From positions 39,608,252 through 39,672,251 of the forward strand of contig NC_057719.1 of the NCBI RefSeq assembly GCF_004010195.1: a stretch of 64,000 nucleotides of DNA, given 5' to 3'. Position numbers and translations under genes: made by a program. The stretch comes from Chiloscyllium plagiosum. Lineage: Eukaryota. Below the pieces are notes generated by a model. That model was not told the origin of the DNA, did not search any database, and worked only from the letters and a program-made list of their open reading frames with translations. How positions within the stretch are numbered: position 1 is the stretch's first letter; each line of letters opens with the position of its first letter. Shown piece by piece: positions 2,160 to 64,000 of the stretch.

Positions 2160-3260
2160 TCAGATAGGCCAAGGTAGCCTAGATGTAACGTTCATAGAAG
2201 GTTTTCTGGATAGTTTCTTAAAACAGCAGGTTCTGGAGCCAATTGGAGAGCAAGCTATGCTTGACCTCATATTGTACAATGAGATAGGATTAATTAAATA
2301 ACCTCATTGTAAGGGTACCCCCATATAGTAGTGATAATCTGAATTATGAAGAGAAGCGTGAGTCCAAGATTAGTATTTTAAATTTGAATTGATTCTGCAG
2401 GCATGAAAGCAGATCTAGTTCATGTGAACTAGCAAACAAGCCAATAGAGGTGTATTGACAGACTTTTATTAGAATATTTCAGAATACACAGAATTGATAT
2501 ATTCTGAGAAAAAAAATTACAAGGGGTGGACCCATCCATTTATAGTATCAAACTTAAAGAGAACGCATATAATTGCACAAAGATAGATGCCAGATCAGAA
2601 GATTTAACAGAATATAAAAATGAGTAGTGAATGTCAAAAAGATTAATCAGGAAGTAAAAATTAAGAGTACAAGAGAAAGATAACAAAACAGATGGAAAGA
2701 CTTTCAGTAAATGTTAAAGAAATTAGCAAATATTTCTCCTTTATTCAAAATGGGAGGGTGTTTAAAAGCAGGAAACAACAGGCCAATTAACTATCATAGT
2801 GGAGGTGTCATAAACTATTATTAAATAAGGCAGAGCACTTACGAAAGTTCAGGGTACTTGGGCATAATCAACCCAGTTTTGAGAAAGGGAAATCATGTTT
2901 AACGAATTTAATAGCGTTCTTTAAGGATGTAATATACTGTGGATAAAGGGAAAGAGGTGGAGGTATTATTCTTAGATTTCCAGAATAGGAGTAAATAGGT
3001 CATTTTCTGGTTGGCAAGATAAAATAAGTAGTCTCCCATAGAAATCAATTCTGCAGTCTTAACATTGGATGAAGGGACCAAAATCACAAATGAATTTATT
3101 CAGATTAAGTGAACAAAGTTCTGACAAATAGAGCATAATGTTAGAAAATTTGAAGGGGTTGTCCATTTCAGCAGGAAGAATAACAAGGAAGTATATTATC
3201 TAAATGATGAAAGATTACAGAACTCTGAGATGCATTGGGCTCTGAATGTCCAAGTGTATA
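2160..3260 (+). mobile_element. Old, highly degenerate CR1-type LINE ORF2 fragments
   Basis: Remnants of endonuclease and RT motifs (LDLILYNE-, GKSCLTNL-, LDFQ-like) with many stops. Confidence 0.65.
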
Positions 3261-22807: not shown

Positions 22808-23732
22808 NNNNNNNNNNNNNNNNNNNNNNNNNNNNNNNNNNNNNNNNNNNNNNNNNNNNNNNNNNNNNNNNNNNNNNNNNNNNNNNNNNNNNNNNNNNNN
22901 NNNNNNNNNNNNNNNNNNNNNNNNNNNNNNNNNNNNNNNNNNNNNNNNNNNNNNNNNNNNNNNNNNNNNNNNNNNNNNNNNNNNNNNNNNNNNNNNNNNN
23001 NNNNNNNNNNNNNNNNNNNNNNNNNNNNNNNNNNNNNNNNNNNNNNNNNNNNNNNNNNNNNNNNNNNNNNNNNNNNNNNNNNNNNNNNNNNNNNNNNNNN
23101 NNNNNNNNNNNNNNNNNNNNNNNNNNNNNNNNNNNNNNNNNNNNNNNNNNNNNNNNNNNNNNNNNNNNNNNNNNNNNNNNNNNNNNNNNNNNNNNNNNNN
23201 NNNNNNNNNNNNNNNNNNNNNNNNNNNNNNNNNNNNNNNNNNNNNNNNNNNNNNNNNNNNNNNNNNNNNNNNNNNNNNNNNNNNNNNNNNNNNNNNNNNN
23301 NNNNNNNNNNNNNNNNNNNNNNNNNNNNNNNNNNNNNNNNNNNNNNNNNNNNNNNNNNNNNNNNNNNNNNNNNNNNNNNNNNNNNNNNNNNNNNNNNNNN
23401 NNNNNNNNNNNNNNNNNNNNNNNNNNNNNNNNNNNNNNNNNNNNNNNNNNNNNNNNNNNNNNNNNNNNNNNNNNNNNNNNNNNNNNNNNNNNNNNNNNNN
23501 NNNNNNNNNNNNNNNNNNNNNNNNNNNNNNNNNNNNNNNNNNNNNNNNNNNNNNNNNNNNNNNNNNNNNNNNNNNNNNNNNNNNNNNNNNNNNNNNNNNN
23601 NNNNNNNNNNNNNNNNNNNNNNNNNNNNNNNNNNNNNNNNNNNNNNNNNNNNNNNNNNNNNNNNNNNNNNNNNNNNNNNNNNNNNNNNNNNNNNNNNNNN
23701 NNNNNNNNNNNNNNNNNNNNNNNNNNNNNNNN
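22808..23732. other. Assembly gap (N run)
   Basis: Run of N. Confidence 1.
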
Positions 23733-37415: not shown

Positions 37416-38530
37416 CCGTTCCCTCCGTGACTACCTGGTCAAGGTCCACGCCCCCCTGCAACCCACCTTCCCATCCTGGCACCTTCCCCTGCCACCGCAG
37501 GAACTGCAAAACCTGCCCCCACACCTCCTCCCTCACCTCCATCCAAGGCCCTAAAGGAGCCTTCCACATCCAAAGTTTTACCTACACATCCACTAATATC
37601 ATTTATTGTATCCATTGCTCCCGATGCGGTCTCCTCTACATTGGGAAGACTGGACGCCTCCTAGCAGAGCGCTTTAGGGAACATCTCCGGGACACCCGCA
37701 CCAATCAACCACACCGCCCTGTGGCCCAATATTTCAACTCCCCCTCCCACTCTGCCAAGGACATGGAGGTTCTGGGCCTCCTNNNNNNNNNNNNNNNNNN
37801 NNNNNNNNNNNNNNNNNNNNNNNNNNNNNNNNNNNNNNNNNNNNNNNNNNNNNNNNNNNNNNNNNNNNNNNNNNNNNNNNNNNNNNNNNNNNNNNNNNNN
37901 NNNNNNNNNNNNNNNNNNNNNNNNNNNNNNNNNNNNNNNNNNNNNNNNNNNNTGGGGAGACTGGACGCCTCCTAGCAGAGCGCTTTAGGGAACATCTCCG
38001 GGACACCCGCACCAATCAACCACATCGCCCTGTGGCCCAGCATTTCAACTCCCCCTCCCACTCTGCCGAGGACATGGAGGTCCTGGGCCTCCTTCACCGC
38101 TGCACGTCTGGAGAAGAACGCCTCATCTTCCGCCTCAGAACACTTCAACCCCAAGGCATCAATGTGGTCTTTAACAGTTTCCTCATTTCCCCTTTCCCCA
38201 TCTCACCCTAATTCCAAACTTCCAGCTCAGCACTGTCCCCATGACTTATCCTACCTGCCAATCTTCTTCTCCACCTATCCACTCCACCCATCACCTTCAC
38301 CCCCTCCCCCACTCATCTATTGTACTCTATGCTACTTTCTCCCCACCCCCACCCTCCTCTAGCTTATCTCTCCACGCTTCAAGCTCTCTGATGAAGAGCT
38401 GATTCCTGATGAAGAGCTTTTGCCCAAAACGTCAATTTTACTGCTCCTTGGATGCTGCTTGAACTGCTGTGCTCTTCCAGCACCACTATCCAGAATCTGG
38501 TTTCCAACATCTGCAGTCATTGTTTTTACC
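37416..38530 (+). mobile_element. 5'-truncated Penelope-like element with 13-bp TSD, spanning a gap
   Basis: GTFPCHRRNCKTC...IYCIHCSRCGLLYIGKTGRLLAERFREH...; TSD TTAATGTGGGTAG at 37403-37415 and 38531-38543. Confidence 0.92.
37783..37952. other. Assembly gap (N run)
   Basis: Run of N. Confidence 1.
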
Positions 38531-44028: not shown

Positions 44029-44207
44029 TTACTTCTGAGCTGGGATAAGATCATCGATAGCCTGACGCTTTTCAAGGCGTTTCTCCATTTCAATTAGCAG
44101 CTTCACACCATCGACTACCATTTGAACCAATTCGACCTCAGAGAAACCCAAACGATCAGCATTGGAAATATCAAAAATACCACCAACTGCAGCAGTATCA
44201 ACACCAC
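44029..44207 (-). CDS. ckb: ckb exon 8 coding part (179 nt incl. TAA): [59 protein letters not shown]
   Basis: Acceptor TTGTTAG|; typical cytosolic CK C-terminus PAQK followed by stop. Confidence 0.97.
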
Positions 44208-46979
44208 CTAACAATGAGAAAGCAATAAATATCACTAAGTTAGAGTTGTAATGAAATACTAAAATCCAATTGACCCAAAAAGACAAAGCAGTTTCCCTTT
44301 CAAGTAAATTTAAAGTCATTAAGATACATTGTCTGTTTTAGGATGTGAATATGCCAGACAGGCAGGCAACAAAAAGTGGGATTTAATTAACAATTGCAAT
44401 AAAAAAAAAGTTTTAAATTACACCAAGTTCCTTTTAAAAGATAAATTGCACAGGCAAATTGCAAAAGCAACACATCCACAAAAGCCTTTCAACAGTTTTT
44501 TTGAAACTGATCCATAAAATAAACAAGCTTAGCTGTGTCATGGAAAAATAGAATGTAGAAAGGAAATGAAAAAGACTAAAAAAAACTTTTACTTCAGTAT
44601 TTTTCCAATATTGTAATGTAGTCTGAAGTGAATCATGCTTTAATCTTGTGACAGTGCTTAAAATTACAAAATAAAAATAGCAACTACATACACTAGATCT
44701 GCGGGTGGGGGGGGGGGAAAAGAATGTCAAATCAAGTGATAATCCAAAGACTGGTTTAAGTTTATTCACAGAATCCAAATTAGGCCCAATAGATAAACCT
44801 GATCTCTCTCAAAAGGATGACACGAACAACCAACGTACAAGTAGTTTCCAACACCAATGCAGAAAATAATGGTCTTTCTTTGTAAAATTGGCTTTGTTCT
44901 AAACTACTGTCAATCTCATCTCAAAGGTATGAGCTTTGATTCTTCATATATTTGTTCTTTTCCTTGAGCATTTTATTTGTAGATCCCCCCCACCCCCATC
45001 TGTTTGCTAGCAAGCTAGGCAATTGTTTAAGACATTAAAGTGCTTTTGAAAGCAGTAAATCTAAGCTGCATTGTAGGGATGGACTTCATCCTCTCCCACC
45101 AGAAGTGTTAAAGGCATATGCATACAATTCAGCAGCTAGCTTTTCTAGCATCTACCAGCTTTTCTGACATCAGAAAGGTGTTGGGTAGTTTGTCTGCTCA
45201 AGGGCCTATTAAAGCCTTCAAAATGCCTCAGATGATCACACAGGATTCATCCCATCACCTACATTTTGCCTGTCAAGAAAGACCACTGCCATGTGGTGGC
45301 CCAGCAGGTGAGCAGAATGTATATTCTTTCGGTTCCCCAGAGGCACTCTCCTTCTAGAAGGGGACTTTTGCCCCATTAATGTCCTTAACCCTCTGTCTGG
45401 CCTCTTGAACCCAGCTCTCAATCCCAAGTAATGGGTAACACGTGGTCAGAGCAGTGACCACTGCTCTCAGCTGACAGTGCTGGCACAGATGCCTGGTAGC
45501 TTGCAAATCAGACTTCCTCCAAAAGGAAGGGCTAGTCTCACGTGCCTGGATAGACTCGGTTCCAAACCTTTAGTCAGGACAACCATGGAGAACATAACAG
45601 GAAAAACAGCAACCTAAACCTCATGCATTCTGTCTTACTTTGTAAAGTTCAGCTTCTTTTATATGTACTTTAAAGATGGATACAGAACCCCATCCTGGAC
45701 TTGCCATTTAATAAAAGAAAAAATTTGAGTTCTCATCACTTATCTTAACCAGCTTCCATAAAAGAGGTCGAGGCACCTCAATTCTTAAATAATCAGGTGG
45801 CAATCTGAATTCTAGGAATGAGTGACTGTTATATCCACTTTATCTGAAATGGTTCTCTGGTTTGTACTTGAAGGATCAATCACTAATTATGCAGACCAAA
45901 AATTTACAAGAGTGCTCAATTCATACTTTGACGGTCTCAAAGTGTTCTGCAACAATTGTAGAATCTTGAAAAATAATTGTTTTCACCATTTTGCCAAATG
46001 CATGTTGTAGATTCAGTTGCCAATAAATTTAGAATCCATATTTGGCTAAAAAATTAATTTAGAAATGAATGGATGGTCAAGGATAGCCAGTATGATTCAT
46101 TATTAATTTTGTGTCAAAGAGAAGATGCATGAAACACATGTATATGACTGCCAGTATGTTGCACAAGTGGCCTTTTCAGAAGGGCACCAGGAGGCAGCTT
46201 CCAGTTAGATTGGATGCTAACATTGAAGATGGCATCCTCATACCTAATTTTCCAAGTCTCACAAACTAATTTAGAAGAAGTTTATTCCACCACATCTTGT
46301 TGTTTCAAGATTAAAAAAAGGAGGTACTGGACTTGATTTCAGGCACAGGTATTGGTCACTGTTTAAAACATGTCAGAGACGCAGGATGTACTTGAACATC
46401 TATATGAGCTTCCAGCCAGAATGCAGGAAATGAGATCACAGATGCCAATATTCCAGAAAACAAAATTATTAATCTGCAGCATAGCTGGAGGGCAAAGTGA
46501 AGAGCAAGCTACAGCAGAAGGCTGATGGATTTTGCACAAAGTACTTGAGGTCTCAAGAAGCCTGCCAAATGGAATTGGGACAATGTCACGGAGCAAGGAG
46601 GAATCCAGAACCAACTTGGCACAGGACTTTTTAAAAAGCTTGGAACCCGTCTGTTCCAGTCTTGGAGCAGTGGCCAACTCCATCAGCACATTTGTGAATT
46701 CCAATATAACTTTTCATTTATAGCCAACATCACAACTGCATTCCCATCACATTATAGCTACCTGGAATCTCTTGCTCTACTGCCTGCAATTAGGATGCAT
46801 TGAAAAGATTTGCAGGTTGATGTTCAACTGGTTTGATTATGTCATGAATACATGTTCCTTGGCTATTAGGTCCTGGAGCAGATCTTGAACCCATGGCATC
46901 TAATTCAGATTAACTTGGTTCAAGTCTGATCTTGCATGATAACAAAGTTGTGGCTAATATTGTTCAAAAAGGCTTGCAG

Positions 46980-47310
46980 GATCTTAACTGTAGAGCTAGT
47001 TGCTTCCTAAGATGGTAAGGATACTGCTCTGGACAAGTTACAGTGGACCATGACTCAAAAGCTAGTTGTCTTCTTGAAGGCATCTTTCATCTTCATACCA
47101 CCACACGGTTGATGCCCATCCAAGATGGTGCACCTCTCAGGGCTTTCAGAGAGAGTTACTTGGTAATCTTTCAAGTTCATCTAGGAGTGTATATTTCTCA
47201 TGGACTGTTAGCAGCCTTCCAAAATCCAAGATAAAGCCACTGAACATTGCTTAGATAATAATAGAGGAAGGTCACCAAAAAGAAATGTTGTAATGACTAG
47301 TGACAAACAT
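46980..47310 (-). mobile_element. Possible RTE-clade LINE remnant in ckb intron 7
   Basis: Minus-strand segment weakly resembles the RTE C-terminal LRWAGHVxRMxDxRxP motif. Confidence 0.35.
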
Positions 47311-48157
47311 AGGCAAGATGTCAGAATGTTGTTAAATGGAGATTAAGAATTACTGGTATCGAATTGAAGATTTCGTGGACAGCCTAACCATTTAAAAAAA
47401 AAAAGGGGCTGGCTATATTCTAGCATCTCCAACAACCCATTTTTAGTGTGCTAATAGCAGTGTCCTTGTGTCACTGGGGTTTTGTACAGCATGCAAACCA
47501 CCAGCAGTCTTGACATGCACTACAGAAATCCCCTCGAGTGGAGGTTTCAGCACTGAAAGCATTACTTCAGCATGTCAATGCTCTAATCTGATTAGATCTT
47601 ATTTCCTAATTTTATGTATTGTGCATGTAAATGTTGATTGTGGCTGATTGACAATGTGCACATTGACAGCAGTTTGCCTTCATTATAGCTACCCTATCTC
47701 ATTATAGTGGCTTAATGATAGCTGGAACAGCAGACTAGAAACACAATGAATGCTTGCCAGGAAACCAGGAAGTGCTGATGAACAACAAATTGGAGAAACT
47801 CCACAGGTCAGTGACACAGACACATCAGTGAACCAGTAAATATTGCAAATAACACTAGCATGGTAGAGTCAGAATCATAGAATTTGTTGCCACACAGTCT
47901 CCTTCACAACTGTTGGTAAATGTAAAGGAGTTTACAGCTTTCCTGGAGTTTCTTAGCCACAAGAAATTCTAAAGCAAAACTTCTACCAATATGATTGATT
48001 GTAAGAGTTACTTGTTTGAAGAAGAAATTCTATTGTGCCAAATTCTTACATTTGGTCAGTTCACCTTGGATTATCTGTCTAGCACTTTATTGCTAGAATG
48101 TACTGTATAATATTCAGGGCTTTGCAACAATGTACTTTCTAGGCAAGATCAACCTAC

Positions 48158-48347
48158 CTGTACCACGTTTCTGCAGTCGCAGCTTTTTCAGAATTTCACC
48201 AAAGTTTTCATTTTTGCTGAGATTAGGAAGCTTCACATGGACGCCAGCACGGAGACCTGTTCCCAGGTTAGAGGGGCATGTCAGGATGTAGCCAAGGTGC
48301 TCATTCCACATAAATGCACGACTATTGTTTTTGAAGACATTTTCGAT
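48158..48347 (-). CDS. ckb: ckb exon 7 (190 nt): [63 protein letters not shown](G)
   Basis: Acceptor TTCTAG|, donor CAG|GTAGG; CPSNLGT active-site signature. Confidence 0.97.
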
Positions 48348-48435
48348 CTAGAATTTTGAAAAGACAAAAATGTATTCAAAAAAAAAACCACCACAGGCTT
48401 TTGGCTTTTACCAACCCAATGGTACAGATCTGTAC

Positions 48436-48559
48436 CTTTGTTAGCCCTGTACAGAAACGGGTGAAGACTTCTTTCATATTTCCACCTTTCTGCATGGAAA
48501 TGACTCGAAGATGATCTTCTTCATTTACCCAAACTAAGAAAGTCTTATTGTCATTGTGC
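48436..48559 (-). CDS. ckb: ckb exon 6 (124 nt): [42 protein letters not shown]
   Basis: Not in the ORF track; read manually. Acceptor TTTTTTAG|, donor AAG|GTACAG; NEEDH catalytic motif. Confidence 0.97.
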
Positions 48560-49119
48560 CTAAAAAAAGAGAAAACTGATTAATTTGTAACCAATCAGTA
48601 ATTTTCAATTTATTAAAGTCAGTGCTAGTGTATACAGTCACAACTAAATATTGTGCATTCGACAAAAACTCAATTAAAATAATTACATTTGACTTGTCAC
48701 ATTCATGTGAGCTCCAGGCTAGTCCCATTTATCTGTCCTTTCCCTGTAGCCCTGCTAATTTCACTTCACAATTGTCCAATTTCCTCTAGAAAGCCACAAT
48801 TAAATTTCTACCCACCATCTCCATAGTGTATTTCAGATCCTAGCCACTTGCAGCTTAAAGACAAAACAAAAACTCATGTCTGGCTCTTATGTCAATCAGG
48901 TTAAAAACTGACACTAGTTTTCAACCCTTCAGCCAATTGAATCATTTCTGCCCATCTACTGACCAACCTCCATAATTTTGAATACTGCAATTCAAGTTGC
49001 CTTTCAGCATGCTCATCTAATGAAAGCATCCACAGCTTCTCCAATTTAATTGTGCAACTGATATTGCTCATTCCAGAATCTCAAATATTTCCAGTTCCCT
49101 CTCCAATGCACTTATGTCC

Positions 49120-49470
49120 TTCAGGTAGTGATGAGTGATGTCACTGGACAAATAATCTGGAATCCCTGAGTAATGCCTAGGGACATGGATTCAAACTGCA
49201 CCAGGATAGTTGGAAGAGATTTAATTGTCACATTAAAAAAAACACATAGGGAATGAAAGCTACTCACAACAATGACCACAAAACTACTTAATTGCTGTAA
49301 AAACCCATCTGGTTCTCAAATATATCTTAGAGGGAAGGAAATCTGCATCATTATCTAGTCTTGCCTAGCTACACATGACCCAGAACCACAATGCAGTTGC
49401 TTTGGATACTCTTGAAGGGATATTGATGGACAAGAAATGCTGATCTCATCAGCCATGCTCACATCCCACA
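49120..49470 (+). mobile_element. Degenerate second-family tRNA SINE in ckb intron 5
   Basis: AAAACCCATCTGGTTC...GGGAAGGAAATCTGC body and shared tail. Confidence 0.65.
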
Positions 49471-50547
49471 ACTTGTGTATACCTAAACGTGTACACAAAT
49501 ATTCCAATGAGACCAAACCAGTGTTTTTTTTAGATACACATTTGTCATAATTTCCTTACTTTTGCAAGCAAAGGAACTGGCTTTAAATTGTGGATTTATA
49601 TTTACTCCCTTAGAGTGCACTTCTCTGGTCTTCTAGCACTTGCTCATATTCAGGCAATGTTGGAAGATTACAGCCAACACTTAAAGAAAAGTAAGAATGG
49701 AAGTTCTGCATGTGTTGGTTTGGATCTCAAGTCCTGGTGTCTTATCAGGCAGAAGTTGGTTTGTCCAATCTATTGTTAGCAGAAGTTATATATTTGTTTT
49801 AAAGAATCAAACCAATATATTCTGTAACAAATTCAAAGACACCACCTTCTTTGAGAGTGTTATGTTGCATTGCGTGAAGACAGTCTGCACTTGTGTTTGC
49901 AACATCGGTTGGGGGGAGGGAAGAAGAGGAAGGCAAGCAGTAGCACCTGCTAGTATTCAAAATTTGTAAAATGCCTAAACTCACTTTTACACAATCCACC
50001 ATAAACACTTGCAAGGTTATTATATAGGAACTTGTATTGGTTTAATTACCAATACAAAGTTCTTTCCAACTAAACTACGGAAATAAATTAAACCATGTTG
50101 GTGACCAAAAGGAGGAAACAGACTACATTGCGGAAACACCGACTTCTGCATAATAAACCTAACAATGAGTAATGGCTATACAGTGCATGTACATGCAAGC
50201 CAATTGAAAAGTAAGCTTCTAAAATAAAAGTCCAAACAGCAACCCCTTCCAGACCATCTTTGCAGAAAGCTGAACTTTCTCCCAAACTGTCCTCCACTTC
50301 AATATGGCTTGTATAACTTTCTAACTGCACAGTTATTTGCTAGTAGAGACAGAAAAACTACTAGCTGCTGGTTAATTTTAAAAAAAAAGCACTTTAGGCT
50401 AACTTTACTTCGGAAATTGATAAACCCACCCTGCATTCAGTACATTAACTATTAATACAGTGCTTCAGCAACCAGCATTCAAAAGAGATGAAATAGTTTC
50501 AAATAAGCAAGCATTTCATTAGTTCTCGATTCCCACCAAGAACTGAC

Positions 50548-50719
50548 CAGATGCCTCTGCCATCAGGCCAATCACGTGCCATCCCAGAAGCCAACAGCAG
50601 TGGAGACACAGGCTTGTCAAACAGGAAGTGGTCATCAATTAGATTCTGCTGCTCCTGGTCAGTCATGTTCTTCAGGGCGTAGTATTTTCCAGTAAACTCA
50701 CCATCCAGACTTCCCAAAG
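50548..50719 (-). CDS. ckb: ckb exon 5 (172 nt): [57 protein letters not shown](W)
   Basis: Acceptor TCACTAG|, donor [17 protein letters not shown] and ARDWPD motifs. Confidence 0.97.
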
Positions 50720-50727
50720 CTAGTGAA

Positions 50728-50764
50728 TAAATTATTATTATTATTATTATTATTAATAATAATA
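50728..50764. repeat. (ATT)n/(AAT)n microsatellite next to the exon 5 acceptor
   Basis: taaattattattattattattattattaataataata. Confidence 0.85.
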
Positions 50765-51609
50765 AAAAAATTACTTAAATTAGACTAGAGAATTTCCAAA
50801 TTTAACAGTTTGGCTTGATTACATTGTTAAGTCAAAACCTCAAATGAGAAAAAGGAAAATTAAGCAAAATATCAAGGTTATTTAAGACATGGCAAATAAA
50901 AGATTAAATGACTGCCATTAACTCTTATTCAGAAGACTAAATATTGGGCTTGGAGAGGCTACATTTTAATCAAATGAAAACATGTGCAGCTGTCAATTAA
51001 ACAAACACAGATTACAGGGACCAAATGATGCAAATTTTGAAAGCTTGGGCAAGCAGGTTTCCCCTAAAGTTCATTAATTTGGGCAGAATTGGTCTTGAGT
51101 CATGAGAGATGTTTCAGTAAAAACCTGATGATAGTCAACAGCAGGGATACCTCCAGAGACTGCAGGGCAACAGAAAGGTTGCTTTACTCTCAAAAGTGAA
51201 ATCTAATGTATCTAGGCCCATGGTTCTTAATCTTTGGTCTCCTTGGGGACTCCTGCACAGACCTTTCAAGAATTCTACAATAGAGGATCAACACACAGGT
51301 GTATGATTGTATAGGATGCCATGTTTGAGGATAAGCAAGCCAGCAAAGGCTTGCTTTGTTCTCCATGCTCACTATAGTATACTTCCCAGTTATTCACTAC
51401 CGTCCCCTTACACTTTTACTGTTCTGCTGTTCCTAGGCTGAAGTCCTCTCAGGATCTTGCTGTGGATAAAGTGACTCTGCAATGAAAAGTGAGCATTTTT
51501 TTCACTCCAATGTAATGTAGTTGCCCTTTTTCCTTAAAAGTGAAGGCATTGTATCCAAGGGGGTTCACAAGTTTATAATATTTAATTTAGAGGAGAGTCT
51601 GAGTACTTC

Positions 51610-53100
51610 CAGTTAGTTGTACAGCGCAGAAACAGGCCCTTTAGTCCAAATCATCATGCTGACTAAATACCCTAAAATCAATCTAGTCCCATTTGCAAAC
51701 ATTTGGCCCATATCCCCCTAAACCTTTTCTATTCATATACCCATCCAGATGTCTTAAATGCTGTAATTGTACTAGCCTCCACCAATCCTTCTGGCAGCTC
51801 ATTCCATACATGTACCAACTTCAGAAAAAGTTGCCAACAAATCAGTTTAAAATTTTTCTCCTCTCACCTTAAACCTATGCTCTCTCGTTCTGGACTTCCC
51901 TATGCTGGCAGGGGAAAAAAAAAAGGAGACCTTGGCTATTCACCCTATCCATAGCTCTTTATTTTCTAAGCCTCCAAGGTCACCCATCAACCTCTGATGC
52001 TCCAGGGGAAATAGACCCAACCTATTCAGTCTCTCTTTTTGCTCAAATCATCCAGCCCTGGCTTTTCAGGTTTAACAGCATCTTTCCTATAGCAGGGAGA
52101 CTAGAATTGAATGCAGAATTCCAAAAGTGGCCTATCCAATGACTGTACAGTCACAATATGATTTCCCAACTTCCATACTCAATGCACTGACCTATAAAGG
52201 CAGTATACCAAATGCTTTTTTTTCATTACTGTGTCAACCTGCAACTCCACTTTCAAGGAACTATGAACCTGCACCCAGTGGTCTGTTTGGTGACACTTCC
52301 CAGGGTTGGATCATTAATCCTGCATTGATTTGTCTTATCAAAAATGCAACATCTCACATTTGTCCAAATTAAACTCCATCTGCCACTTCTTGGCACAATA
52401 GCGCATCTGACCAAGGTCCCATTCTGCTGAAATAACCTTCTTCACTGTCCACTACATCACCCATTTGGGGTCACCCACAAACTTACTAACCATTCCTCCT
52501 ATATTCATAGGAAAAAAGCAGTTGTCCCAACATTGCCACAAGGATCAAAATCACTGATCATAGGCCTCCAATCTGACCAGCTCTCTACCACCACCCTCTG
52601 TCTACTACCATCAAGCCAATTTTGTCCAAATGACTAGCTCTCACTGGATTCCATGTGATCTAACTTTGATGACCAGTCTACCATGCAGAACTTGAAGGTC
52701 TTGCTGAAGTCCAGAAAAAGCCTCCAGTCTTTCAACATCTCACCCATGGCTATTGATAAAAAAATCTCTCAGCAAGGGGGCCAGCAATCTCTTCACTTGC
52801 TTCCCACAAAGTTCTAGAAGTGTGTCCTGGAGATTTATCCATCTTTATGCACTAAGACGACAAGCATCTCCTCGACTGTAATAAGGATACTTAAGATATC
52901 ACTATAAAATTTCTCCAAGTTCTCTAGCTTCCTTATCCACAGTAAGTATTGACAAAATACTCATTTAGTATCTTATCCATCTCCAGTAGTTCTACACAGA
53001 TGGTCTTGATTATCTTCAAGGTGCCCTATTTTCTCTCTACTCTTTTGCCCTTAATGTATTTGTAGAAAATTGCTGGATTGTCCTTAACCCAATTTGTCAA
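51610..53100 (-). mobile_element. CR1 LINE (RT to 3' end) in ckb intron 4
   Basis: ~1.5 kb of degenerate CR1 ORF2 and 3' UTR. Confidence 0.8.
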
Positions 53101-54909
53101 AAAAGAATCTAGCAACTACAGAAAAAAAGTTAGAAAATCACTTGATCTGAATTTTTGACAATTGCAGAATCTTTCAATGCAACTCAGTTGTTTCAATAAC
53201 TTGCTTAAAATTAATGGAGAGAAAGTCACACTTACGGAGATGACCCCAAGGTGAGCCACATTTATATCACCTGACAAAAGGAGCCATGCCCAATATTCAT
53301 AAGCATAGTTTCCCAAGCTTTGCCAGGTTCTGCGATGGCCAGAATTGAAAGAAAGCAATGCTAGGAAGCCCCACTTTATCCTAAATGTCAGTGTTGATGA
53401 TGATTGAGCTTCAGGTAGGTGTAGTTCCCACCCACACAGGTTATCTGCAGCCTGATGTGCTGTATGTGTGTACTCCAGCCTAATTATAAGCCACTCCAGG
53501 ATAGTATGTGAAGGGTAGTGTAAACAGTTCAGGCTGTATGTTTCCATTTTTAAACAAAATTGCAAACCTGCCACTTAATTAAATTACCGTCACTCTTGCT
53601 GAAAGAAATTGTCTCAATGCTGGTGTTGAGAACTAGAAGGAATCCACATCCCTCTTTAGCATATGAGCAGCGATTTGAAAAAAATGGAAGAGCTGGGAAC
53701 AAACTGAGGATACCAGCTTGCTAACCTTCATTTATAGCAAGAGGTTACCTCACCTGAATATAAAAGGGTACAATGTAATTTTTCCTCAATTCGTCAGTTC
53801 TGTTTTGAATAATTCAGTCAAAGTTGAAGCCAAAAAGAGATTCCTGCAATTATGCAAGTCATAAAATAATTTCATCAAAAAAAAGCAATTTTAAGAAATT
53901 GCAGAAGACTGAAAACATTCCTTTTTTCATTTTCTGAGCTATGTTGTGGGATTATAGTGTAAAGTAAATATTCAGGGCTTTTCAGATTTCATTTAAACTT
54001 TGTAGGCTATAAACTGAAACACATGATTCCTAGAGCTTTGGCAATAAGTCAGTTACATTATTGCTTTCAGGGAGTGTCAGCAGCACCAAGAACTTGTTAT
54101 TCACCCATTCATGCTATATTTGTACTTCAGCCCATGACCTTTATATTACTCACTTGTACCAGATAGGAGGAAATAATTATCTGGTGACAGCTCAAATTTT
54201 ACTGGGTTTTCAAGCAATTGAAGTAGATACATTTAAACATCTTTCTTTATAGGAAAGAATGACTTTTTTTACATATAGAGGAATATTCTCCTCTTTTGGT
54301 TTTAAGGCACACAGTTAACATTACATTCATATACATTGGCTGTTTCATTCCAAGAATTAATGTGTTTAAAATCCACATTGTTTGAAACAAGAGGTCACAA
54401 GCACAGAGTACAACAGTCATTCTCTTCCATAAATGGATAAGTATGTGGGTTACAGTTTCAGATGTAGTATTTACAGTTAAGTGGAGCATTAGATTTGCCA
54501 GAAGCTGCTCTTAGCTTGAAAAAAGTGTTTAAGGAAGTATACTGAAAAAGGAGATTATTCCAGTTCCCATTTCATGCAAGACTCATGTTCTGACTGAATT
54601 AAACTAGTAGGAGCTTTAACTTTTGGGCAGAAGGTAATGTAGAATTTTTGAAAAAAAAACACACCAGCATTGGAACTTGAAAACAATAGAGAAACACCAG
54701 GGTAGGGGCAAATGAATATTAAAAGACAATAAAGATAATTTAAAAACTAGAGTAAATTTAATTATAGACTGTACTATCAAATAATTGAGCTCAATGCTGG
54801 TTTTAGATGATACTTGTGAAGTAAAACATTTTCCAATGCCTTTGATGGTTCAGATTAAATATTAAAGATAAAATTGAGCAATTCAGTGACATCATCCATT
54901 TGACTTTAC

Positions 54910-55042
54910 CTTCCTCTGAGAGTTTCTCAATAGCACGACGCTCCCCTCTACTGCAGTGAGGGGGAAGGCAGAAGCCACATATACTGCGACCTGTGCGGAC
55001 TCTGCTGCTCAGCACATAATTGGAATCTAGGTCATCACCACC
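54910..55042 (-). CDS. ckb: ckb exon 4 (133 nt): [44 protein letters not shown](A)
   Basis: Acceptor TTTTAAG|, donor AAG|GTAAAG; nucleotide-binding SSRVRTGRS motif. Confidence 0.97.
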
Positions 55043-57139
55043 CTTAAAACAAACACAATCATATTTATTTCTTCCTTTGTGGGTTGTTAATCTATTAAAA
55101 ATGGAATAATAGATGCAAGTGACCTCAATATTAACCAGACTTAATTACAATCCACCAAAAAGGGAATGCAATGCCAGCTTGGCTAGGCTTTTTGCTCACT
55201 TTCCAACTTATAACCTTATTTGGCAGCAGTTATATTGAATCATGTAGAAAAGCAATACAATTTCACATCTAGCATTAAAATTGGCAAGTAGCCAAATGGG
55301 CTTAAGTATTCCTAAAAACAGCAGTATGACAGAATACAAACTCACTTGCAATGTCAGTTCATTCAATAAATAACTCCAAGTAAGTAGATCAAGTTTAAAA
55401 ACTAAATTGCTCAAGGCGTTCAGATGAAAAGGTGCAATACATAAATACCTTTAACTGGATACTGTCTGTAATCTCAGAAATATAAAAAAAAAGTGGTGAA
55501 AATGACCAAATAAAATCAAAGTTTAATTTCCACACAGAGCAATAGGAGGAGGCAGAAAAAGGGTTTTCCTTGAATATAAAGTTTGCAAAAAACAACAATC
55601 CTAATTTGATTATTGTCCTACAATGCATTGATGTACATCTCATTTTATGCATGAATACTTCTTTGCATTCTCCTTCAGTAGAAACAGGCTGACACCAATG
55701 CAGCAGAGGGAATGCTGCATTGTTAGAGCTGTCCTCTTTCAGAAAAGACATTCAACTTTCTAAGCCTTTCTGTTATCACATTGAAACAAAGACCCCTGGA
55801 CCCTCTTGAGAAAGGAGAGAGAGAGAGAGAAAATTGTCCCTTGTATTTGAGTGGGTTAAAAAAAAAACACTCTGATCATAGTCATGCTGCCATTGGCAAA
55901 CTCTTGCTACGTGCAAATTGGCTGCTTTATTTCTACACTACAGGATGTCAAGTGTACCTAGTTTGCTATAAACGAACATTTCTGGTATGGTCGGTGGTCA
56001 TGTATGGTACGATATCAAGACAAGTATTTTTAGTTCCATTTAATACTAGCTAATCACAGCTAGTGTTGAGCTGTAGTATTGTTGGACATTTTATCAAAAT
56101 CTTTGTAACTTGTACTACTCAAGTGTATTAAATGAAAATGTCAAAAGAAAAAGGAAAACATTTTATATTGAATGGGAAGTACATGCTGGCTGGTTAAGAA
56201 GTTAGCAAAGGCATTGCTGTTGAGAATGCACCAGTTAGGTGACTGACAGTTAACTGCCAAGTTTTTTAAAAAAAAATTAGTCAAAGCAATACTCCAAGAA
56301 TGGTATCAGAATGGGTGTAAGCTATTTCACTAAGTTGAAACAGGCAGTGTATATACATTCTCCATGGCAGCAGTTCTACTAATCATCCACAGAATACTCT
56401 AATGGTCTCACTTGACTATAGAAAATGCTGAAAAAGTGACCAAATGAATTCAAGAGGGCAATTTAAATGTTTAATTTCCATGTAAAACAATGTCGGAGAT
56501 AGAGAAAGTTTTCCTTTAAAATAATTTTTTTTTGCAATGAACACTTTTACATTGGTATTCTTTCACATGGGGTTGGACCGAAGGGTCTGATTCCATGCTG
56601 TACATCTCTATGATGGTATGTCCTGATGAGCATAATAAAAAGATTCAACAAAAATACCTCTCAGTAATACTATCATTTGTTAAAACTAGCATAGGGAGAT
56701 CACAAGTCAAGCCTTGCCAGTCCCATTAAAGGCATCATAGCAAGTTACAAAAATTCCTCCAGGCAGCGATTCTCGATGTTAAAAAAGTAGCATCAAAACT
56801 GAAATCAATAGATTCTTCACAAGGTTGCACAACATTAAAATAATGTTAGCAAATGCTCTGACAATCATTTAGCCTAGTAGAAGTATCTATGTAATGCCAG
56901 TTAAAATCCTTCCAGGTCAGAAAGTGTATAGTAGCAATTTTACATTCATTTACTCTTAAAATGTTAAAAACAATCCATTGTATTACTTGCACAGGTGCTC
57001 AACCCACAGGAGATTCAAGGTGGCAGTTCACCACAACTTTAAGGAGCAACTAGGGATGAACAATAAATGCTGGCCAGCTAACGACATCCACATCCCACAA
57101 ATGAATTTTTAAAAATTCAATTAGGAAGAGATCCCTCAC

Positions 57140-57294
57140 CTTGAGATTCTCATGGTTAAGATCAGTTTTATGCTTATCAGTAGGTTTGTAGCCACCGTGA
57201 CGATCCCGAATGACTGGATCAAAGAGGTCCTTAAAAACCACATATGATTCTTCATCACCAGCTACACAACCTACTGTCATAATAAATGGGTGAC
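57140..57294 (-). CDS. ckb: ckb exon 3 (155 nt): [52 protein letters not shown]
   Basis: Acceptor GTACAG|, donor AAG|GTGAG; CK motifs GHPF and RHGGY. Confidence 0.97.
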
Positions 57295-57564
57295 CTGTAC
57301 AGAAAAAAAGCACTTTAATGAATTTTAAAAGTAATCTGTAGCATCAGAAATATGTTGCTTTTAGCTTTTCTAATTGAGAACAACTTTTTCCAATCTTAGA
57401 ACTGGATTGCAATACTGACCATCAAGTCTTCCAAAATACTTGCTTACTTCAATTGAGGTATACACGTTGATATAGAAACCATCGAGACGGTCGTGCAATG
57501 ATATACAAGGATTGGTCTTACGTTCCTTGACAATAGCGAATTTATAAGCAGACAAGAAAAAAAA

Positions 57565-57620
57565 AAATCACTCAAGACTAGAGTGGTGCTGGAAAAGCAC
57601 AGCAGGTCACGCAGCATCCG
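57565..57620 (-). mobile_element. Penelope-terminus fragment in ckb intron 2
   Basis: GTGGTGCTGGAAAAGCACAGCAGGTCACGCAGCATCC matches the PLE end. Confidence 0.75.
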
Positions 57621-57712
57621 CCAAAAATGATCACCCGGGCCACTAAGACAATCGAGTGGAACTCGATTAGTGAAGGAACTGGCCACTCATTCAGCCGATT
57701 GAAAAGTTTTAC

Positions 57713-57863
57713 CGGGGTAATCAATCTCTGTAAATCATCGAGAGTAAAGCCAATGGGATTGGACTTGAGTTTCAATGTCCAGCATTTTGGCCATGTGGTT
57801 GTTGCGTTTGCTCAGATCAGAGCATTCTTCTGGGTATAATCTCTTCATCTTGAACGCGGTCAT
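57713..57863 (-). pseudogene. Degenerate duplicate of ckb exon 2 (pseudo-exon) within intron 2
   Basis: Translates MTAFKMKRLYPEECSDLSKRNNHMAKML, then GFTLDD in a shifted frame, then TEIDYP(G)|GTAAAA. In-frame TGA at 57737-57735; the acceptor-like tract ends in CAC rather than CAG. Confidence 0.88.
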
Positions 57864-58214
57864 TTAGAGGTGCAGGGGGAAAATCACAACTACATTGAAA
57901 TGAAAGCATAAGACGGATCATATCCCGGGTACCATCTACTATCTCTTCACAGAAGGTCGCTGCCGCGCAGGTATAATCCAATTCAATAATGCTTAACAAC
58001 CTAGAGGCTAAAAATCAGAAGCATACTTTAAATAGTGTTTCGATTTTAAATTAATGATCCAAATCAATTATGTAATGGGTCGTCAGGGCAGGCTTTAAAC
58101 ACAACCAATATAAGGTCGGGGTTAGTATACATTTCCCAATTAATTTCTTAATGTTTTTTTGTAGAGCAACGCTTCTGTACGGAGGAAAGCAGATGGCTCA
58201 CAGTACGGGTTTAC

Positions 58215-58407
58215 CTGGGTTGTCAATCCCAGTCTGAATGACATCGTCAAGGGTAAATCCGCTGGAGGTTTGCTTATCTCTCAGCTTGCTATACATCTCC
58301 AGGGTCAGGACTTTAGCCATGTGGTTGTTATGTTGGCTCAAATCCGGGAATTCTTCTTTCCCGGAATATTTCATCTTCAGAAGGTTGTGACTATTGCTGA
58401 ATGGCAT
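58215..58407 (-). CDS. ckb: ckb exon 2 coding part (193 nt; exon starts 58420): [64 protein letters not shown](G)
   Basis: Acceptor TTCGCAG at 58422-58421, Kozak-like ACCATG, donor CCAG|GTAAA. Confidence 0.97.
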
Positions 58408-59452
58408 GGTAACCACTTTACTGCGAACACAAACAAGAGTTTTAGAAATCACATTTTAAAAGACGGACTTTGAATAGTTTTGGTCCCAGCACTTCAAATA
58501 TAATGGAGTCCCATTTGCGGCTATTAAAAAAACACGCTATTCAGCTAGAAAGCTGCTTTATAAACCGTTAATTCGAGAACAAGTTAACCGAAATTTGTAT
58601 AGTGCTTGAAACAAATGATGTTAGTAAACTTCTGGACGATAACAGCAAAGTCTCTAGCATCTTTCAGACACTTTTCTTTCATTTCTAGGTCTCGGTCTCC
58701 GAAAATAATTTACGATTTCGTGATTTTATTTATTTGAAAAAAATAGATTTTTGACATTGAGCTTTTAATACTTTTGCCCTTCCGACATTGTGGATTAGTG
58801 AACAATAATCTCTTGATTATTTCAGAATTCTTTCGTATTGCTGAAGACACTATTGGATTCTCAAATAACCTTCCGATTACGTAAATTCCTCGTCCTTCAT
58901 GACCCTTTCCCGTTGTATTCTATGTAAATTTGAGGACAACTCAAGTACAGCAGCTATCTACGTGTTAAAATCCAGATGTTACAGATTAAAACCAATGGAT
59001 TAGCACAAATACCGTTCTTGATCCTTTCAGGCTTGCTGGATTCTCTCTTAGATGCACAAAAATTAAATTTGAATGAAGTTTCCAATATTAAAAGCATTTT
59101 ACTTCCTAGGAAACTTTCATCAAGATAGAGACAATCCATGAACTCTAATAAAATTCCTTCAATCCTGCTTTATCAGTCAGTCAATGCTCAGGAGAACGCT
59201 CGGAGCCAAATTGCATCCGAGTGAATTATTTTAGAGGTAGGGAACGAGGAGTATAAATGTACAACTACAGTTGACTGTTTCGTTTCATTTCAAAATTATT
59301 TTAATTCACCTTTTCGAATGCTTTGCAATTTATTATATTTGCACTGATGCATCTTGCTAGAGTTTGCATTGAGAGTAAATACATAATAGCTTTGAAGCAA
59401 AAGATTGCAAATTATAGGATAGCGTTTAAACTGTTTTTTTTAATAACCTTAC

Positions 59453-59540
59453 CTGAATGATGAGGATTTTTTTTGTTTTAAGAAACCAGTTTAATTCTCA
59501 GCCTGCTCTTCCCTCCTCAGCCTATCTCCACGCTACCCTG
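59453..59540 (-). other. ckb: ckb non-coding exon 1 (5' boundary approximate)
   Basis: Strong donor CAG|GTAAGG (GT at 59452-59451) lies ~120 nt downstream of the TATA/CCAAT cluster. A non-coding first exon is the known CKB layout. Confidence 0.7.
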
Positions 59541-59670
59541 ATTGGTGTCCAAGCGTTCCACACGTCCCCATTGGATTATATAGCGCGGCGAGAGTGCACT
59601 GCTATTGGCTGCTACTTTTAACCCCACTCACACCACGAACTGTCAATCAAAGTGGAGCCGATTACGTCAT
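59541..59670 (-). promoter_or_regulatory. ckb proximal promoter: CRE/ATF-like TGACGTAA (59669-59662), CCAAT (59608-59604), TATA CTATATAA (59583-59576), CCAAT (59574-59570), CCAAT (59545-59541)
   Basis: Motifs read directly; they are clustered, oriented toward exon 1, and lie in locally CpG-enriched sequence. Confidence 0.75.
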
Positions 59671-60507
59671 CATCACTGGCCCAAGGGCATGTCGTGTGAC
59701 ATCATCAGTGTGCGGTCGGAGTCCACTTGTGGTGTGGGGGTTGGTGAGTTTCTCCTTTTTTGTTATCACGTGTGTTCGTATAAGTTCTTGAAGAAAGAAG
59801 CGTTAAAGGTAAAACCTGTAACGGTTTGCCGAAGCATTCATTAAGATTGCTGGCGTTCAGAGGTTATGTGTGTGCTCCTGCGTAGGACGTTCCTACTAAT
59901 GCAGGTGGTTTTGCGAGTGTGTTATTACCAACACTCGGTTTGCCCCAGACTACCTTAGGTTTGTTTTACACACTGAATTTCAATTTAGCTTAGGTCTGGG
60001 CACCTATGAGGCGGCTTCTGGGCCACCATCATCAGAATTGTATTCAATAACAATATGTAAATTCATTGCCGTGTACATCTCTCAGCCTACCATGTCACCA
60101 AACCAGAGAATTGATCAGCTGAGAACATATGCCGCAGCACCATATATTCCTTAGAATGAGTTGGTGTCACACTCATCACAGGCATGTACCCTAAATAGCA
60201 TATGTGATGGACAGAACAAAGTATTCTGCAATCAGTGGATCAGGTCAAAACTCTGCAGTCCTGCTATGTTTAGTCATATACAGTATAGCAGAAGAAAATT
60301 AAACCAATCAGTAAAGGAGACTGTGTGAAAGTCACTATCCTCATTGATTGGAGCCTGCATGTCAGTGCAAATGAAACTTAAAGCATTTCAACTATCTTTA
60401 GCCAGTAGAGTGAAGAGGATGGTGCATCTCAGTCTTTCCTGAGGTCCCAAACATCACATACTAAACTTTTTTTTTAGGGAAGACAATTTATTATCCTTAC
60501 CCTGACT

Positions 60508-61003
60508 GACCTGTGGCTCAACATTTCAACTCCCCCTCCCACTCCACCAAGGACATGCAGGTCCTTGGACTCCTCCATCGCCAGACCATAGCAACATGAT
60601 GGCTGGAGGAAGAGTGCCTCATCTTCCGCCTCGGAACCCTCCAACCACAAGGGATGAACTCAGACTTTTCCAGTTTCCTCATCCTCCACCCCACCCCACC
60701 TTGTCTCAGTCCCAACCCTTGAACTCAGCACCACCTTCCTAACCTGCAATCTTCTTCTTGCCCACCCCATCACCCCCACCTTATCACCCTCACCTTAACC
60801 TCCTTACACCTATTGCATTTCCAATGCCCCTCCTCCCTACCTTTTATCTTAGCCTGCTTGGCACACTTTCCTCATTGCTGAAGAAGGGCTCATGCCCGAA
60901 ACGTCGATTCTCTGGCTCTTTGGATGCTGCCTGACCTGCTGTGCTTTTCCAGCAACACATTTTCAGCTCTGATCTCCAACATCTGCAGTCCTCACTTTCT
61001 CCA
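60508..61003 (+). mobile_element. Penelope-like 3' fragment with an intact hammerhead core, inserted into a second-family SINE remnant (~60470-61145)
   Basis: VAQHFNSPSHSTKDMQVLGL; CTGAAGA-A-GGGC-TCAT-GCCC-GAAA-CGTC at 60878-60905. Confidence 0.88.
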
Positions 61004-61639
61004 GGCTTACATGTGACCCACAACAATGTGGCTGACTCCTAACTGTCCTCTGTGGAGGCCTAAAAAGTGACTCAATTCAAGGAAAATTGATGAGTAACAA
61101 ATCCTGATCTTGCCAATGATGCCCACACTCTTATGAAATAAAAAAAATGCCAGTTTTAATCTATTACAGACCACTGCATGTGATATAATGGCTAAAGATT
61201 ATGAATAAAACTATAAGCATTGACAGCAATCTGGTGTTAGTTCTGAAGATGTCATCCAGAATTAGCCATGCCCCTTGCCAAGATGTTTCAGTGAAACTAC
61301 AACATTGGCATTACCTGCCCTCCAAATCATTCACCATTTTTGTCTTCTCTCCAAAAACCGATCAAATCTAATTTGGCCAATTACCACTCCATCAGTGTAT
61401 TCTCAATCCAGTGTAATGTCAGGAATTGCATCATTGAGTGTGCCTTCAATTGGCACTTAACTCTGTAATAACCAGTCTGTCAGTGGTTTGTTTGAGTTCC
61501 ACCAAGGTTATGAACCTCTGACCTATTTACAGCTTTGATCTGAACATATTTAATAGAGTGGAAATCAACAAATGAGGTGAGAGTACTGGTCCTGAATCAG
61601 AGAGTACTTGTTGGATGTAGATTCAAAGACTAAGTCAAT

Positions 61640-62560
61640 GCAATCTTGGAACATTCTTCGTTGGTTGGAATCAACCAATTAGGAAATTGGTTGTTGTAGT
61701 TTGAGGCATTTCATCTGAAATTCAGAACACTAGGAGTTTCTCAGAGTAGTTTCCTAGGCCTGACCATTTTCAATGTTTTTCTTTATCATAGTGTCACAAT
61801 TAGGGATATTGCCAAATGATTTCACAATAATCATCATTTGCAATTCCTCAGATACTGAAGCAGTCCATACCACCATATTACCAGCTTAGGCTAGTAAATG
61901 GCAAGTAATGTTTGTGCCATTCAGGTGTCAGGTAGTTAGTATTTCTAACAAGGCAAGATCTATCCATCTTTCCTTGACATTCAACTATATTACAGTTGTG
62001 AAATTCCCTATCATTGATATCCTCAGGTTACATTTACAAGAAACTTAGTTGAACCAGCTATATAAATACTTAAGCTCCAAGATCAGAACAGATGTTAGAT
62101 GTTTTGCAGTGAGTCATTAAGCTCCAGACTCCCAAATGCATATTCACATTTGTGAGGTGCCTTGGAAGAGTGATAGAATACTCTTCACTTAGGCAAAAGT
62201 GAGGACTGCAGATGCTGGAAACCGGAGTTTAGATCAGTGTGGTGCTGGAAAAGCACAGCAGGTCAGGCAGCATCCAAGGAGCAGGAAAATCGACGTTTTG
62301 GAAGGACGTTTGCCCGAAATGTCAATTTTCCTGCTTCTCTGATGTTGCCTGACCTGCTGTGCTTTTCCAGCACCATTCTGATCTATACTCTTCACTTGCC
62401 TAATGAGGGTAGCTCAAACAATATTCAAGAATCTAAATGCCATTCAAGACAAAGCCCTTGATTGGCACCCCCATCCACCACCTTAAGCATTCCTTCCCTC
62501 CATCCCACCACCACAGCATTTTGGCAGCAGTATATCCTGTTTACAAAACACACTGCAACA
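61640..62560 (+). mobile_element. Degenerate second-family LINE RT/3' part
   Basis: Homologous to 11370-11790. Confidence 0.65.
62191..62384. mobile_element. Hairpin Penelope-terminus element with 13-bp TSD
   Basis: TSD ATACTCTTCACTT at 62178-62190 and 62385-62397; inverted arms meet at decayed hammerhead halves. Confidence 0.85.
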
Positions 62561-63329
62561 ACCCACAGCTGGTAGAACTAAAGGCTGCAGACCTGTGGAT
62601 AGCTATTTAACTTTAGTTACATTTGAAGCAGACTGTCCATCAGTTTAGAATTTATTGGTAAACTCTGAATTCAATCTGATATTGTGAATTTATGTGGTGT
62701 TCAAAGAAGTTCTGTAGCGTAGAATTCTTTGGTTTAGTGTCAGAAAGTGCCTAGTCAGATGTATTACATGGCCAAGAGCAGAATAATGTACCCTGTGCTT
62801 TGGAATCTAAACCACAAAGCCTCCTTGTATTTTCTTTTGAGTAGGAAAGTCATTTTCTTTTGCAATTTAGTGCCAAATTAAGGTAGTTTTGTTTTGAGAA
62901 ACTGCTTAAGCTCAGTTTGCCTAAGAACCTTGCCAAACAGTGTGGGATTGTTTATCCATTCAGTTGTGAATGGGATTTGATCTTGTAGGTAAATAGTTTA
63001 GAAATTCAGGGGATGTATGACCTAGTTCCCAATGACAGATAATTTTTAAAGCATAATATTGTACTTAAACTTAGATGCCAGTGACTGCAGCATGAGTAAC
63101 ATTGCATATTAGTAACCCTATTTGCACATTTATTGAGAGTTGGAACTAATGAAAGGTTATCTGTGTATATTCTGAGCTGTGATTCTAGTAGCAGTGTTAA
63201 GGGGTTTATTGTGCTAACTTGCAATGAGCAACATATTAAGTCCACATGAAACAATTGTTTCTGCTACTGTATTCTTGACACAAGTTTCATTACATCCAAT
63301 AAATTAAAGTTGGATGCCTTGGCAGTCTA

Positions 63330-63830
63330 ACTTTAACAGAATTAAAGCACTTGAACAACTAACAGAAGGGGAGCTAAGCACATTAGTGCAACAGACAAGG
63401 CTGAAGCAACAGCATTTATCCTCAACCAGAAGTAATGAGTGCATGATCCATCTTAACATTCTCCTGAGCTCCCCCATTGATCTAATCTCAATCATCAGCG
63501 AAATGGTGAATGAGGTTGTTGATGATATTTTCAAATGGTACTTGCAAACGAATGAACTGCTCACTGATGTTCAGTTTAAGTTCTGTAAAGAACACTGATA
63601 TCCTGACCTCTTCCCAGCTTTGGTCTAAATATGGACTAAAGAACTGAACTCCAGAGGTGAGGTGAAAATGACTGCCCTTGACATCAAGGCAGCATTTGAC
63701 CAAATATGGCATCAAAGAGCCCTTGCAAAACTGGAGTCATTGTGGAGAGTGGGGTGGGTAGAGGTGGGGAAATCCCTCCACTGGAAAGGACAAAGGAAGG
63801 AGACTAAGGAGGTCAGTCATCTTAGCCCAA
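63330..63830 (+). mobile_element. Second-family LINE RT fragment
   Basis: NELLTDVQFKF and MTALDIKAAFDQIWHQRALAKL motifs. Confidence 0.8.
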
Positions 63831-63834
63831 GTTC

Positions 63835-64000
63835 TGAATCAGTGGTGCTGGAAGAGCACAGCAATTCAGGCAGCATCTGACGAGCAGCAAAATCGACGTC
63901 TCGGGCAAAAGCCCTTCATCAGGAATAAAGGCAGAGAGCCTGAAGCGTGGGGGAGAGATAAGCTAGAGGAGGGTGGGCGTGGGGAGAAAGTAGCATAGAG
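63835..64000 (-). mobile_element. Penelope-like 3' end, running off the window
   Basis: Reverse complement of 38330-38490; hammerhead-like CTGATGA..GAGA. Confidence 0.85.

Follow-up and report, generated by a model that had tools for sequence, protein, structure and literature searches.

The creatine kinase (CK) gene in the window, that is, in the whole 64-kb stretch of Chiloscyllium plagiosum DNA that was analysed, carries a broken second copy of its first coding exon, which raises the question of whether a pair of alternative exons was once present here. In 1990, Wirz et al. reportedly described two alternative first coding exons in the chicken B-CK gene, from which the isoforms Ba and Bb are made, and this pair is usually regarded as a chicken peculiarity. 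The original prediction for this locus held that the dual-exon design may have been inherited from the jawed-vertebrate ancestor and may have decayed in this lineage.

The CK gene is located on the minus strand at about 44032–59551 of the window. It could be identified as ckb because of its synteny: a GCD14-family gene (PF08704, GCD14/TRMT61; C10:39.68–39.71 Mb, plus strand) lies head-to-head with it, and a MARK kinase with its KA1 exon at C10:39.596 Mb (plus strand) lies tail-to-tail. The same TRMT61/MARK gene order is presumably found at the human ckb locus. The features considered here are listed below.

59453..59551 (5' limit approximate), minus strand: non-coding exon 1 of ckb (X6 contig 59453–59551, joint 59453>58420; 20 raw reads of X21)
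58215..58420, minus strand: functional exon 2 encoding the long (Bb-type) N-terminus, ATG at 58407, 64 codons + 1 nt (sequence; spliced on both sides in RNA)
57890..57891, minus strand: candidate cryptic AG located 26 nt ahead of the relic ATG, behind a T-rich tract (sequence; substitution at 57891 in X17)
57870..57871, minus strand: AC closing a pyrimidine tract and presumed to be a dead acceptor, at 6 nt from the relic ATG (same in organism C)
57713..57869, minus strand: relic, a pseudoexon that was probably once a short (Ba-like) first coding exon; its ATG at 57863, TGA 57737–57735, donor GTAAAA 57712–57707
57572..57620, no strand assigned: very high-copy repeat fragment in intron 2, about 90 nt past the relic donor (depth about 10^6, loose ends in four of four runs)
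57140..57294, minus strand: exon 3 of ckb, the first shared exon (joint from exon 2 in X6, X17, and X21)

Functional exon 2 is preceded by an AG at 58422–58421 and followed by the donor GTAAAC; its coding part, from ATG 58407 to 58215, consists of 193 nt and ends in phase 1. Silent sites at its 3' end (58215–58260) were strongly conserved against a bird-like metagenome locus (L021, 1092–1137), with 19/30 third positions identical in the core, and this conservation may reflect splicing-regulatory sequence. A second very high-copy repeat fragment was observed in intron 3 (57050–57120). Runs of N occupy 22808–23732 and 37783–37952, and the remainder of 1–44000 and 59600–64000 contained, by eye, repeat-like reading frames only.

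The coding part of the relic extends from ATG 57863 to 57713 (151 nt) and ends at a phase-1 donor. It lies 351 nt downstream of the working exon 2, close to the approximately 350 bp given in the original prediction, the coordinates of which all held (193 versus 151 nt, both phase 1; TGA at 57737–57735; exon 3 starting at 57294). Local DNA alignment of the relic with exon 2 scored 104.5, compared to 31.7 ± 5.4 (maximum 57.4) in 1000 shuffles, and one copy of the relic is present in the genome. When the relic was aligned with the 178-nt (59-codon) short exon of other vertebrates in a frameshift-aware manner, four net deletions of 3, 11, 6, and 7 nt (27 nt) were required, two of them in frame and two being compensating frameshifts, while the ATG and the phase-1 donor were kept. 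The two compensating indels had been foreseen, but the two further in-frame deletions had not. Similarly, the AC at 57871–57870, presumably a former AG, is present as described, but a second candidate acceptor AG exists at 57891–57890. The stops, the frameshifts, and the lost acceptor are real lesions of a pseudoexon.

A profile search listed at least 120 of 298 matches, and those listed were mostly bird gene models in which both exons are fused, the long one first. The chicken record P0032 was among them and contains both exons, long before short, which bore out the chicken N-termini and their order as stated in the original prediction. Many public bird CKB models (among P0002–P0120) erroneously fuse the two exons, in many cases by translating intron sequence, and miss a portion of the shared region; this is a systematic annotation error caused by the exon pair. 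A second exon in non-avian species, which had been sought by the prediction, could also be found. In the whitefish Coregonus (P0271) and the two cyprinids Anabarilius (P0283) and Cyprinus (P0416), both exons stand ahead of the shared part in the same order, and the short start is present in a 376-aa lizard isoform and in one eel protein. Of 52 matched metagenome loci, 11 were examined, and the order long exon, short exon, exon 3 was evident in the DNA of two, one bird-like (L021) and one teleost-like (L023). The gaps from the long donor to the short ATG and from the short exon to exon 3 were 473 and 485 nt in the bird-like locus, 476 and 122 nt in the teleost-like locus, and 351 and 418 nt in the shark. 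The distance from AG to ATG was 10 nt in the bird-like and teleost-like Ba exons and 6 nt, counted from the AC, in the relic. Thus the relic sits between the long exon and exon 3, as the Ba-type exon does.

In Albula (P0097) and Bagarius (P0282), whole short-type CK units follow a long-type unit. In these models, as in P0189 and P0208, a long-type unit is followed, within one fused model, by one short-type unit or by two; these are possibly tandem gene copies that retain the short exon only, a splice-isoform separation, or they could be annotation artefacts. In a teleost-like M-type CK from a metagenome (L070), an additional intron appeared to interrupt the first coding exon behind the HMAKV motif, and P0183, P0384, and P0385 are broken at that point as well. 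Protein and metagenome searches returned no intact cartilaginous-fish short exon. A search of longer proteins with the 42-aa relic frame gave no candidate (weak evidence), and a search of proteins of 16–91 aa gave 112 matches among 133 candidates, none of which resembled an intact shark short exon on inspection. In exact look-ups, the window exon frame and the frame of a CK-like gene on C9 were absent from the protein collection. The relic had weak PDB matches, which gave no indication of exon type, and the ESM Atlas search returned generic phosphagen-kinase clusters only.

The age of the pair was evaluated in a tree built without the relic (13 rows, 192 columns, one outgroup row), in which the Bb and ckm exons formed a clade (96/98) with the bird and teleost Ba exons outside. 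In the same tree, a teleost-specific duplication was rejected (p = 0.002), while a bird-specific duplication gave p = 0.086. Because the long exon is placed with ckm exon 2 and the short exon falls outside, these sequences indicate that the exon pair probably predates the ckb/ckm duplication, and a short exon would be expected at the relic position in the shark ancestor.

Three cytosolic-type CK genes were detected in the genome (C10, C41, and C9), and a MARK KA1 exon stands tail-to-tail with every one of them; the fourth MARK gene, on C45, had no CK match. The ckm gene has the long exon only, and the closest PDB match of this exon was 1vrp, an electric-ray CK, in line with a cartilaginous fish, an assignment on which the proposed age of the exon pair depends. 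No second first-coding exon was found in ckm (5.4 kb scanned) or in the C9 gene (14.9 kb scanned). The latter (G000:C9:39655068-39674323; L003, L009, and L010) is complete but divergent. Its single first coding exon has the length of a long exon, and the N-terminal block scored 36.6 on a broad, partly circular Ba profile and -0.3 on the Bb profile; the exon is Ba-like with a five-codon extension, and P0219 may be related to this gene. The RVRTGR, NEEDH, and CPSNLG motifs of the window gene read QVSTGR, NKEDH, and CPSDLG in the C9 gene, the product of which may have altered activity. The exon content of these genes fits an ancestral pair that was shared out among genome duplicates. The order of ckb, ckm, and C9 was not recovered in a gene tree of exons 3–8, several rows of which had mis-modelled tails. 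Two further CK genes, nearer the mitochondrial type, are located in tandem about 50 kb apart (G000:C40:16133365-16206592; L004 and L005). Short N-termini were also seen in invertebrate-like matches, and the short form may simply be ancestral. The short ckb exon is not known from mammals. There is about an even chance that the pair predates the genome duplication which separated ckb and ckm, with ckm keeping the long exon only, the C9 gene a short-type exon, and ckb both, and with the short exon kept in birds, lizards, and teleosts, moved to separate tandem genes in some teleosts, and lost independently in mammals and the shark lineage.

The relic probably descends from the short (Ba-type) first coding exon of ckb and is its decayed orthologue. 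The strongest alternative, which is unlikely, is that the Bb exon was duplicated independently, and long ago, in cartilaginous fishes. This copy would have been functional for a while and would then have changed its N-terminus or dropped 18 nt behind the Met before dying, and the true Ba exon would have vanished without trace; in a variant, the relic would be a Ba/Bb mosaic produced by gene conversion. The relic ATG stands in the Ba register at Met 1, followed by K7-R8-L9-x-P11-E12, and each of codons 1–12 is 0 or 1 base from a residue present at that column in seven named-record Ba-type exons (six steps in total). The N-terminal codon likelihood ratio favoured Ba over Bb by 1–3.3 bits. With profiles from (mostly) named records, codons 2–12 scored +5.7 for Ba and +6.6 for Bb shifted by one codon. 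The shifted register aligns K-M-K, which is common to the relic and the Bb exon, as is AAGATGAA, and it equals the Ba score once the Met is left out, which is in favour of a Bb duplicate. However, simulated decay of the shark's own Bb exon reached the Ba score of the relic in fewer than 0.5% of runs, and did so together with a Met in register in fewer than 0.02%. Whole-exon profile scores with cheap gaps (108 for Ba, 115 for Bb, and 115 for M) left Ba and Bb unseparated. A stronger contrast (+16 versus -27/-2) came from a Ba class pattern written after the relic had been seen, which was partly circular, and this profile was replaced.

Among the DNA trees, the log-likelihood was best in the Ba register (-1927.2, versus -1931.2 and -1939.3), leaving the Bb duplicate 4 units worse; here the relic fell outside the starred clade of Bb and M exons (98/99), and its union with the own Bb exon was rejected (p-AU 0.025). 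The other three of the four DNA trees joined the relic with the own Bb exon at supports of 71–82 (one-codon shift, 78/61; Met + 18-nt gap, 82/64; core only, 71/80), and the 'Met + 18-nt gap' alignment rejected its union with Ba (p-AU 0.025). This weak grouping may be explained by shared base composition or conversion. One protein tree placed the relic with Ba, C9, and P0219 at 92/92, a placement that moves with the alignment and the rows, and the protein trees did not reject the relic with its own Bb exon (p = 0.17 and 0.31). Where teleost Ba and Bb differ in the core, the relic sided with Bb at 13 sites, with Ba at 7, and with neither at 3; the corresponding counts for birds were 5, 5, and 4. 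Judged by sequence alone, there is a modest vote for the relic as Ba. The trees follow the N-terminal alignment, and Ba orthology rests beyond this on position, order, and parsimony, including the clade of long and ckm exons in the tree without the relic. A Bb duplicate would need a second duplication in the same place and order, an exact in-frame 18-nt deletion, and the replacement of four successive codons.

A further explanation is very improbable, namely that a small share of transcripts still includes the relic, which could act as a poison exon entered via the AG at 57891–57890, or that the exon works and its lesions stem from assembly errors. To its credit, this explanation has the kept donor and net phase, the second AG, and the scope of the RNA data, as assembled contigs lose rare variants, 25 weaker joints fell outside the joints listed, and one raw RNA run was sampled at about 2%. 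Four of 24 listed sequencing runs were aligned to the locus, of which X6 and X17 behave as RNA; X6 is from the same organism in an independent study, and the X17 contigs carry the change of organism C at 57891. An X6 contig matched 57591–58160 with one difference and no gaps, so the lesions are not assembly errors, a point which the original prediction had left to raw data. The joint from exon 1 to exon 2 was present in X6 and in 20 reads of X21, and the joint from exon 2 to exon 3 in X6, X17, and 11 reads of X21. The predicted test junctions, from exon 1 to the relic and from the relic to 57294, were absent among the joints listed for X6, X17, and X21, and none of these listed joints connects the relic to exons 1 and 3 in place of the long exon. 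The relic had the depth of the flanking intron, 32.6 versus 2234–2350 in X6 and 15.8 versus 2535–3109 in X17, and 0–0.7 versus about 20 in the raw reads of X21. Contigs of X6 and X17 crossed both relic edges unbroken at intron depth. Because no such joints were listed and the depth was that of intron, it is a relic rather than a working Ba-type exon.

Related organisms also speak against residual splicing. A contig of organism C covering 57591–58242 had 26 substitutions and 10 gap letters, none of the gaps within the relic coding part, and organism C therefore has the same relic deletions. Organism C has lost the AG at 57891–57890 and has a change at position +3 of the relic donor. In organisms B and C, codon 10 of the relic reads TAA, and both have a G that preserves the conserved Val after the two Asp of the relic. 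The contig of organism B had 14 inserted bases, by length, still unplaced, with its indels partly displayed. Against organism C, the relic differed at 5/151 positions, the flanking intron at 21/471 (p = 0.65), and the exons at 3/351 (p = 0.057), all small counts, with functional exon 2 differing at 1 of 192 nt; the relic evolves at a neutral, intron-like rate. About seven changes were counted at otherwise invariant relic codons, near 10% of replacement sites, compared to 2% per lineage for the split of organisms A and C (by hand), which roughly places the death of the relic five times further back than that split. The relic is real, dead, and skipped in the runs examined.

The relic had long been a separate, selected exon before it decayed, as indicated by an excess of third-position changes and by the depth of its split from the working exon. 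In 30 unambiguously aligned codons, the two differ at 12/30 third positions and at 10/60 first and second positions (p = 0.02). At four-fold sites they differ at 6/7, and ckb and ckm at 5/8. Third-position identity was 18/30 between the relic and the own Bb exon and 19/30 between the own Bb exon and either bird or teleost Bb, so that the relic is as far from its own exon as that exon is from those of birds and fish. A recent local duplication of exon 2, dead on arrival, is the least probable explanation of all, as the shared donor start GTAAA and the proximity are outweighed by these differences, by flanks without similarity in the alignment, by a total identity of 68/90 to the own Bb exon against 74/90 between that exon and bird or teleost Bb, and by the occurrence of the relic in three organisms about 4% apart.

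With the relic taken as the Ba orthologue, a history of the locus can be proposed. In the ancestral state, the common non-coding exon 1 would have been joined to one of two exons, the long one (64 codons) or the short one (59 codons) further downstream. Either would have supplied an ATG of its own and continued into exon 3 through an identical phase-1 donor, so that one enzyme would have come in two N-terminal versions. Inclusion of both would break the frame (1+10 nt lie ahead of the second ATG in the bird-like and the teleost-like locus), and this may contribute to their exclusive use. The short exon would have been abandoned before the split of organisms A, B, and C, and the loss of the acceptor, the four deletions, and the stops presumably followed. 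In the RNA runs examined, the relic is constitutively skipped and the long form alone appears to be made, and no protein product of the relic is expected. If included, it would encode a 42-residue peptide here and meet a stop at codon 10 in organisms B and C, and the downstream junctions should trigger decay of the transcript. The predicted inheritance from the jawed-vertebrate ancestor with decay in this lineage is supported in that the copy is not recent, second exons exist outside birds, and the lesions are genuine; one-to-one orthology with Ba appears likely.

This would make the two-exon design at least as old as the jawed vertebrates. If true, the Ba/Bb pair is more than 400 million years old and was retained in some lineages and lost in others. 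The relic is a clear example of exon death and perhaps of duplicates dividing up isoforms; it reveals no new mechanism and is an evolutionary footnote. In the accessible part of a study of muscle CK, lysines K8 and K24 of a weak M-line binding site are located in the N-terminus near the dimer interface (PMC2175123). Exon choice swaps the N-terminal region that bears this site in muscle CK, so that conservation of the short form suggests an unexplained role in targeting or dimerisation. A literature search, from which subscription journals were mostly absent, found no publication that treats how this exon pair evolved. The words 'ckb' and 'creatine' are absent from the main text of PMC4494069 and from PMC9741552 and PMC9013439, and the pair, inside or outside birds, is unmentioned in the accessible portions of PMC3080659, PMC8070484, PMC2175123, and PMC4494069 and in the small supplement files of PMC4417111. 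The relic and its deep age may be unreported, while the fish and lizard short forms are already in public annotation.

Comparison with known systems begins with the survey of Abascal et al. 2015 (PMC4494069), the accessible part of which describes ancient, mutually exclusive tandem pairs of homologous exons, many dated to jawed vertebrates, and the separation of splice isoforms after gene duplication, where duplicates retain one exon each; unlike the present analysis, that survey, in the same part, starts from human events. In Albula and Bagarius (P0097 and P0282), in contrast to the shark, the short type begins CK units of its own, arranged in tandem. The teleost and squamate short forms (P0271, P0283, P0416, P0421, and P0281) resemble the relic in having a short exon behind the long exon; in them it has 59 codons and a start of the type basic-basic-Leu-x-Pro/Ala-acidic, but they are intact and are known here as gene models alone. 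Annelid glycocyamine kinase, the alpha and beta chains of which presumably arise from two alternative N-terminal exons, is likewise a phosphagen kinase with an N-terminus varied by exon choice, and both chains were among the matches. Like the shark locus, the chicken B-CK gene has a tandem of paralogous first coding exons, the long one ahead of the short one, and either exon brings an ATG and ends at a phase-1 donor (P0032 and the bird-like contig), whereas the second exon of the shark is broken and skipped, and the long form is the only one seen in the shark.
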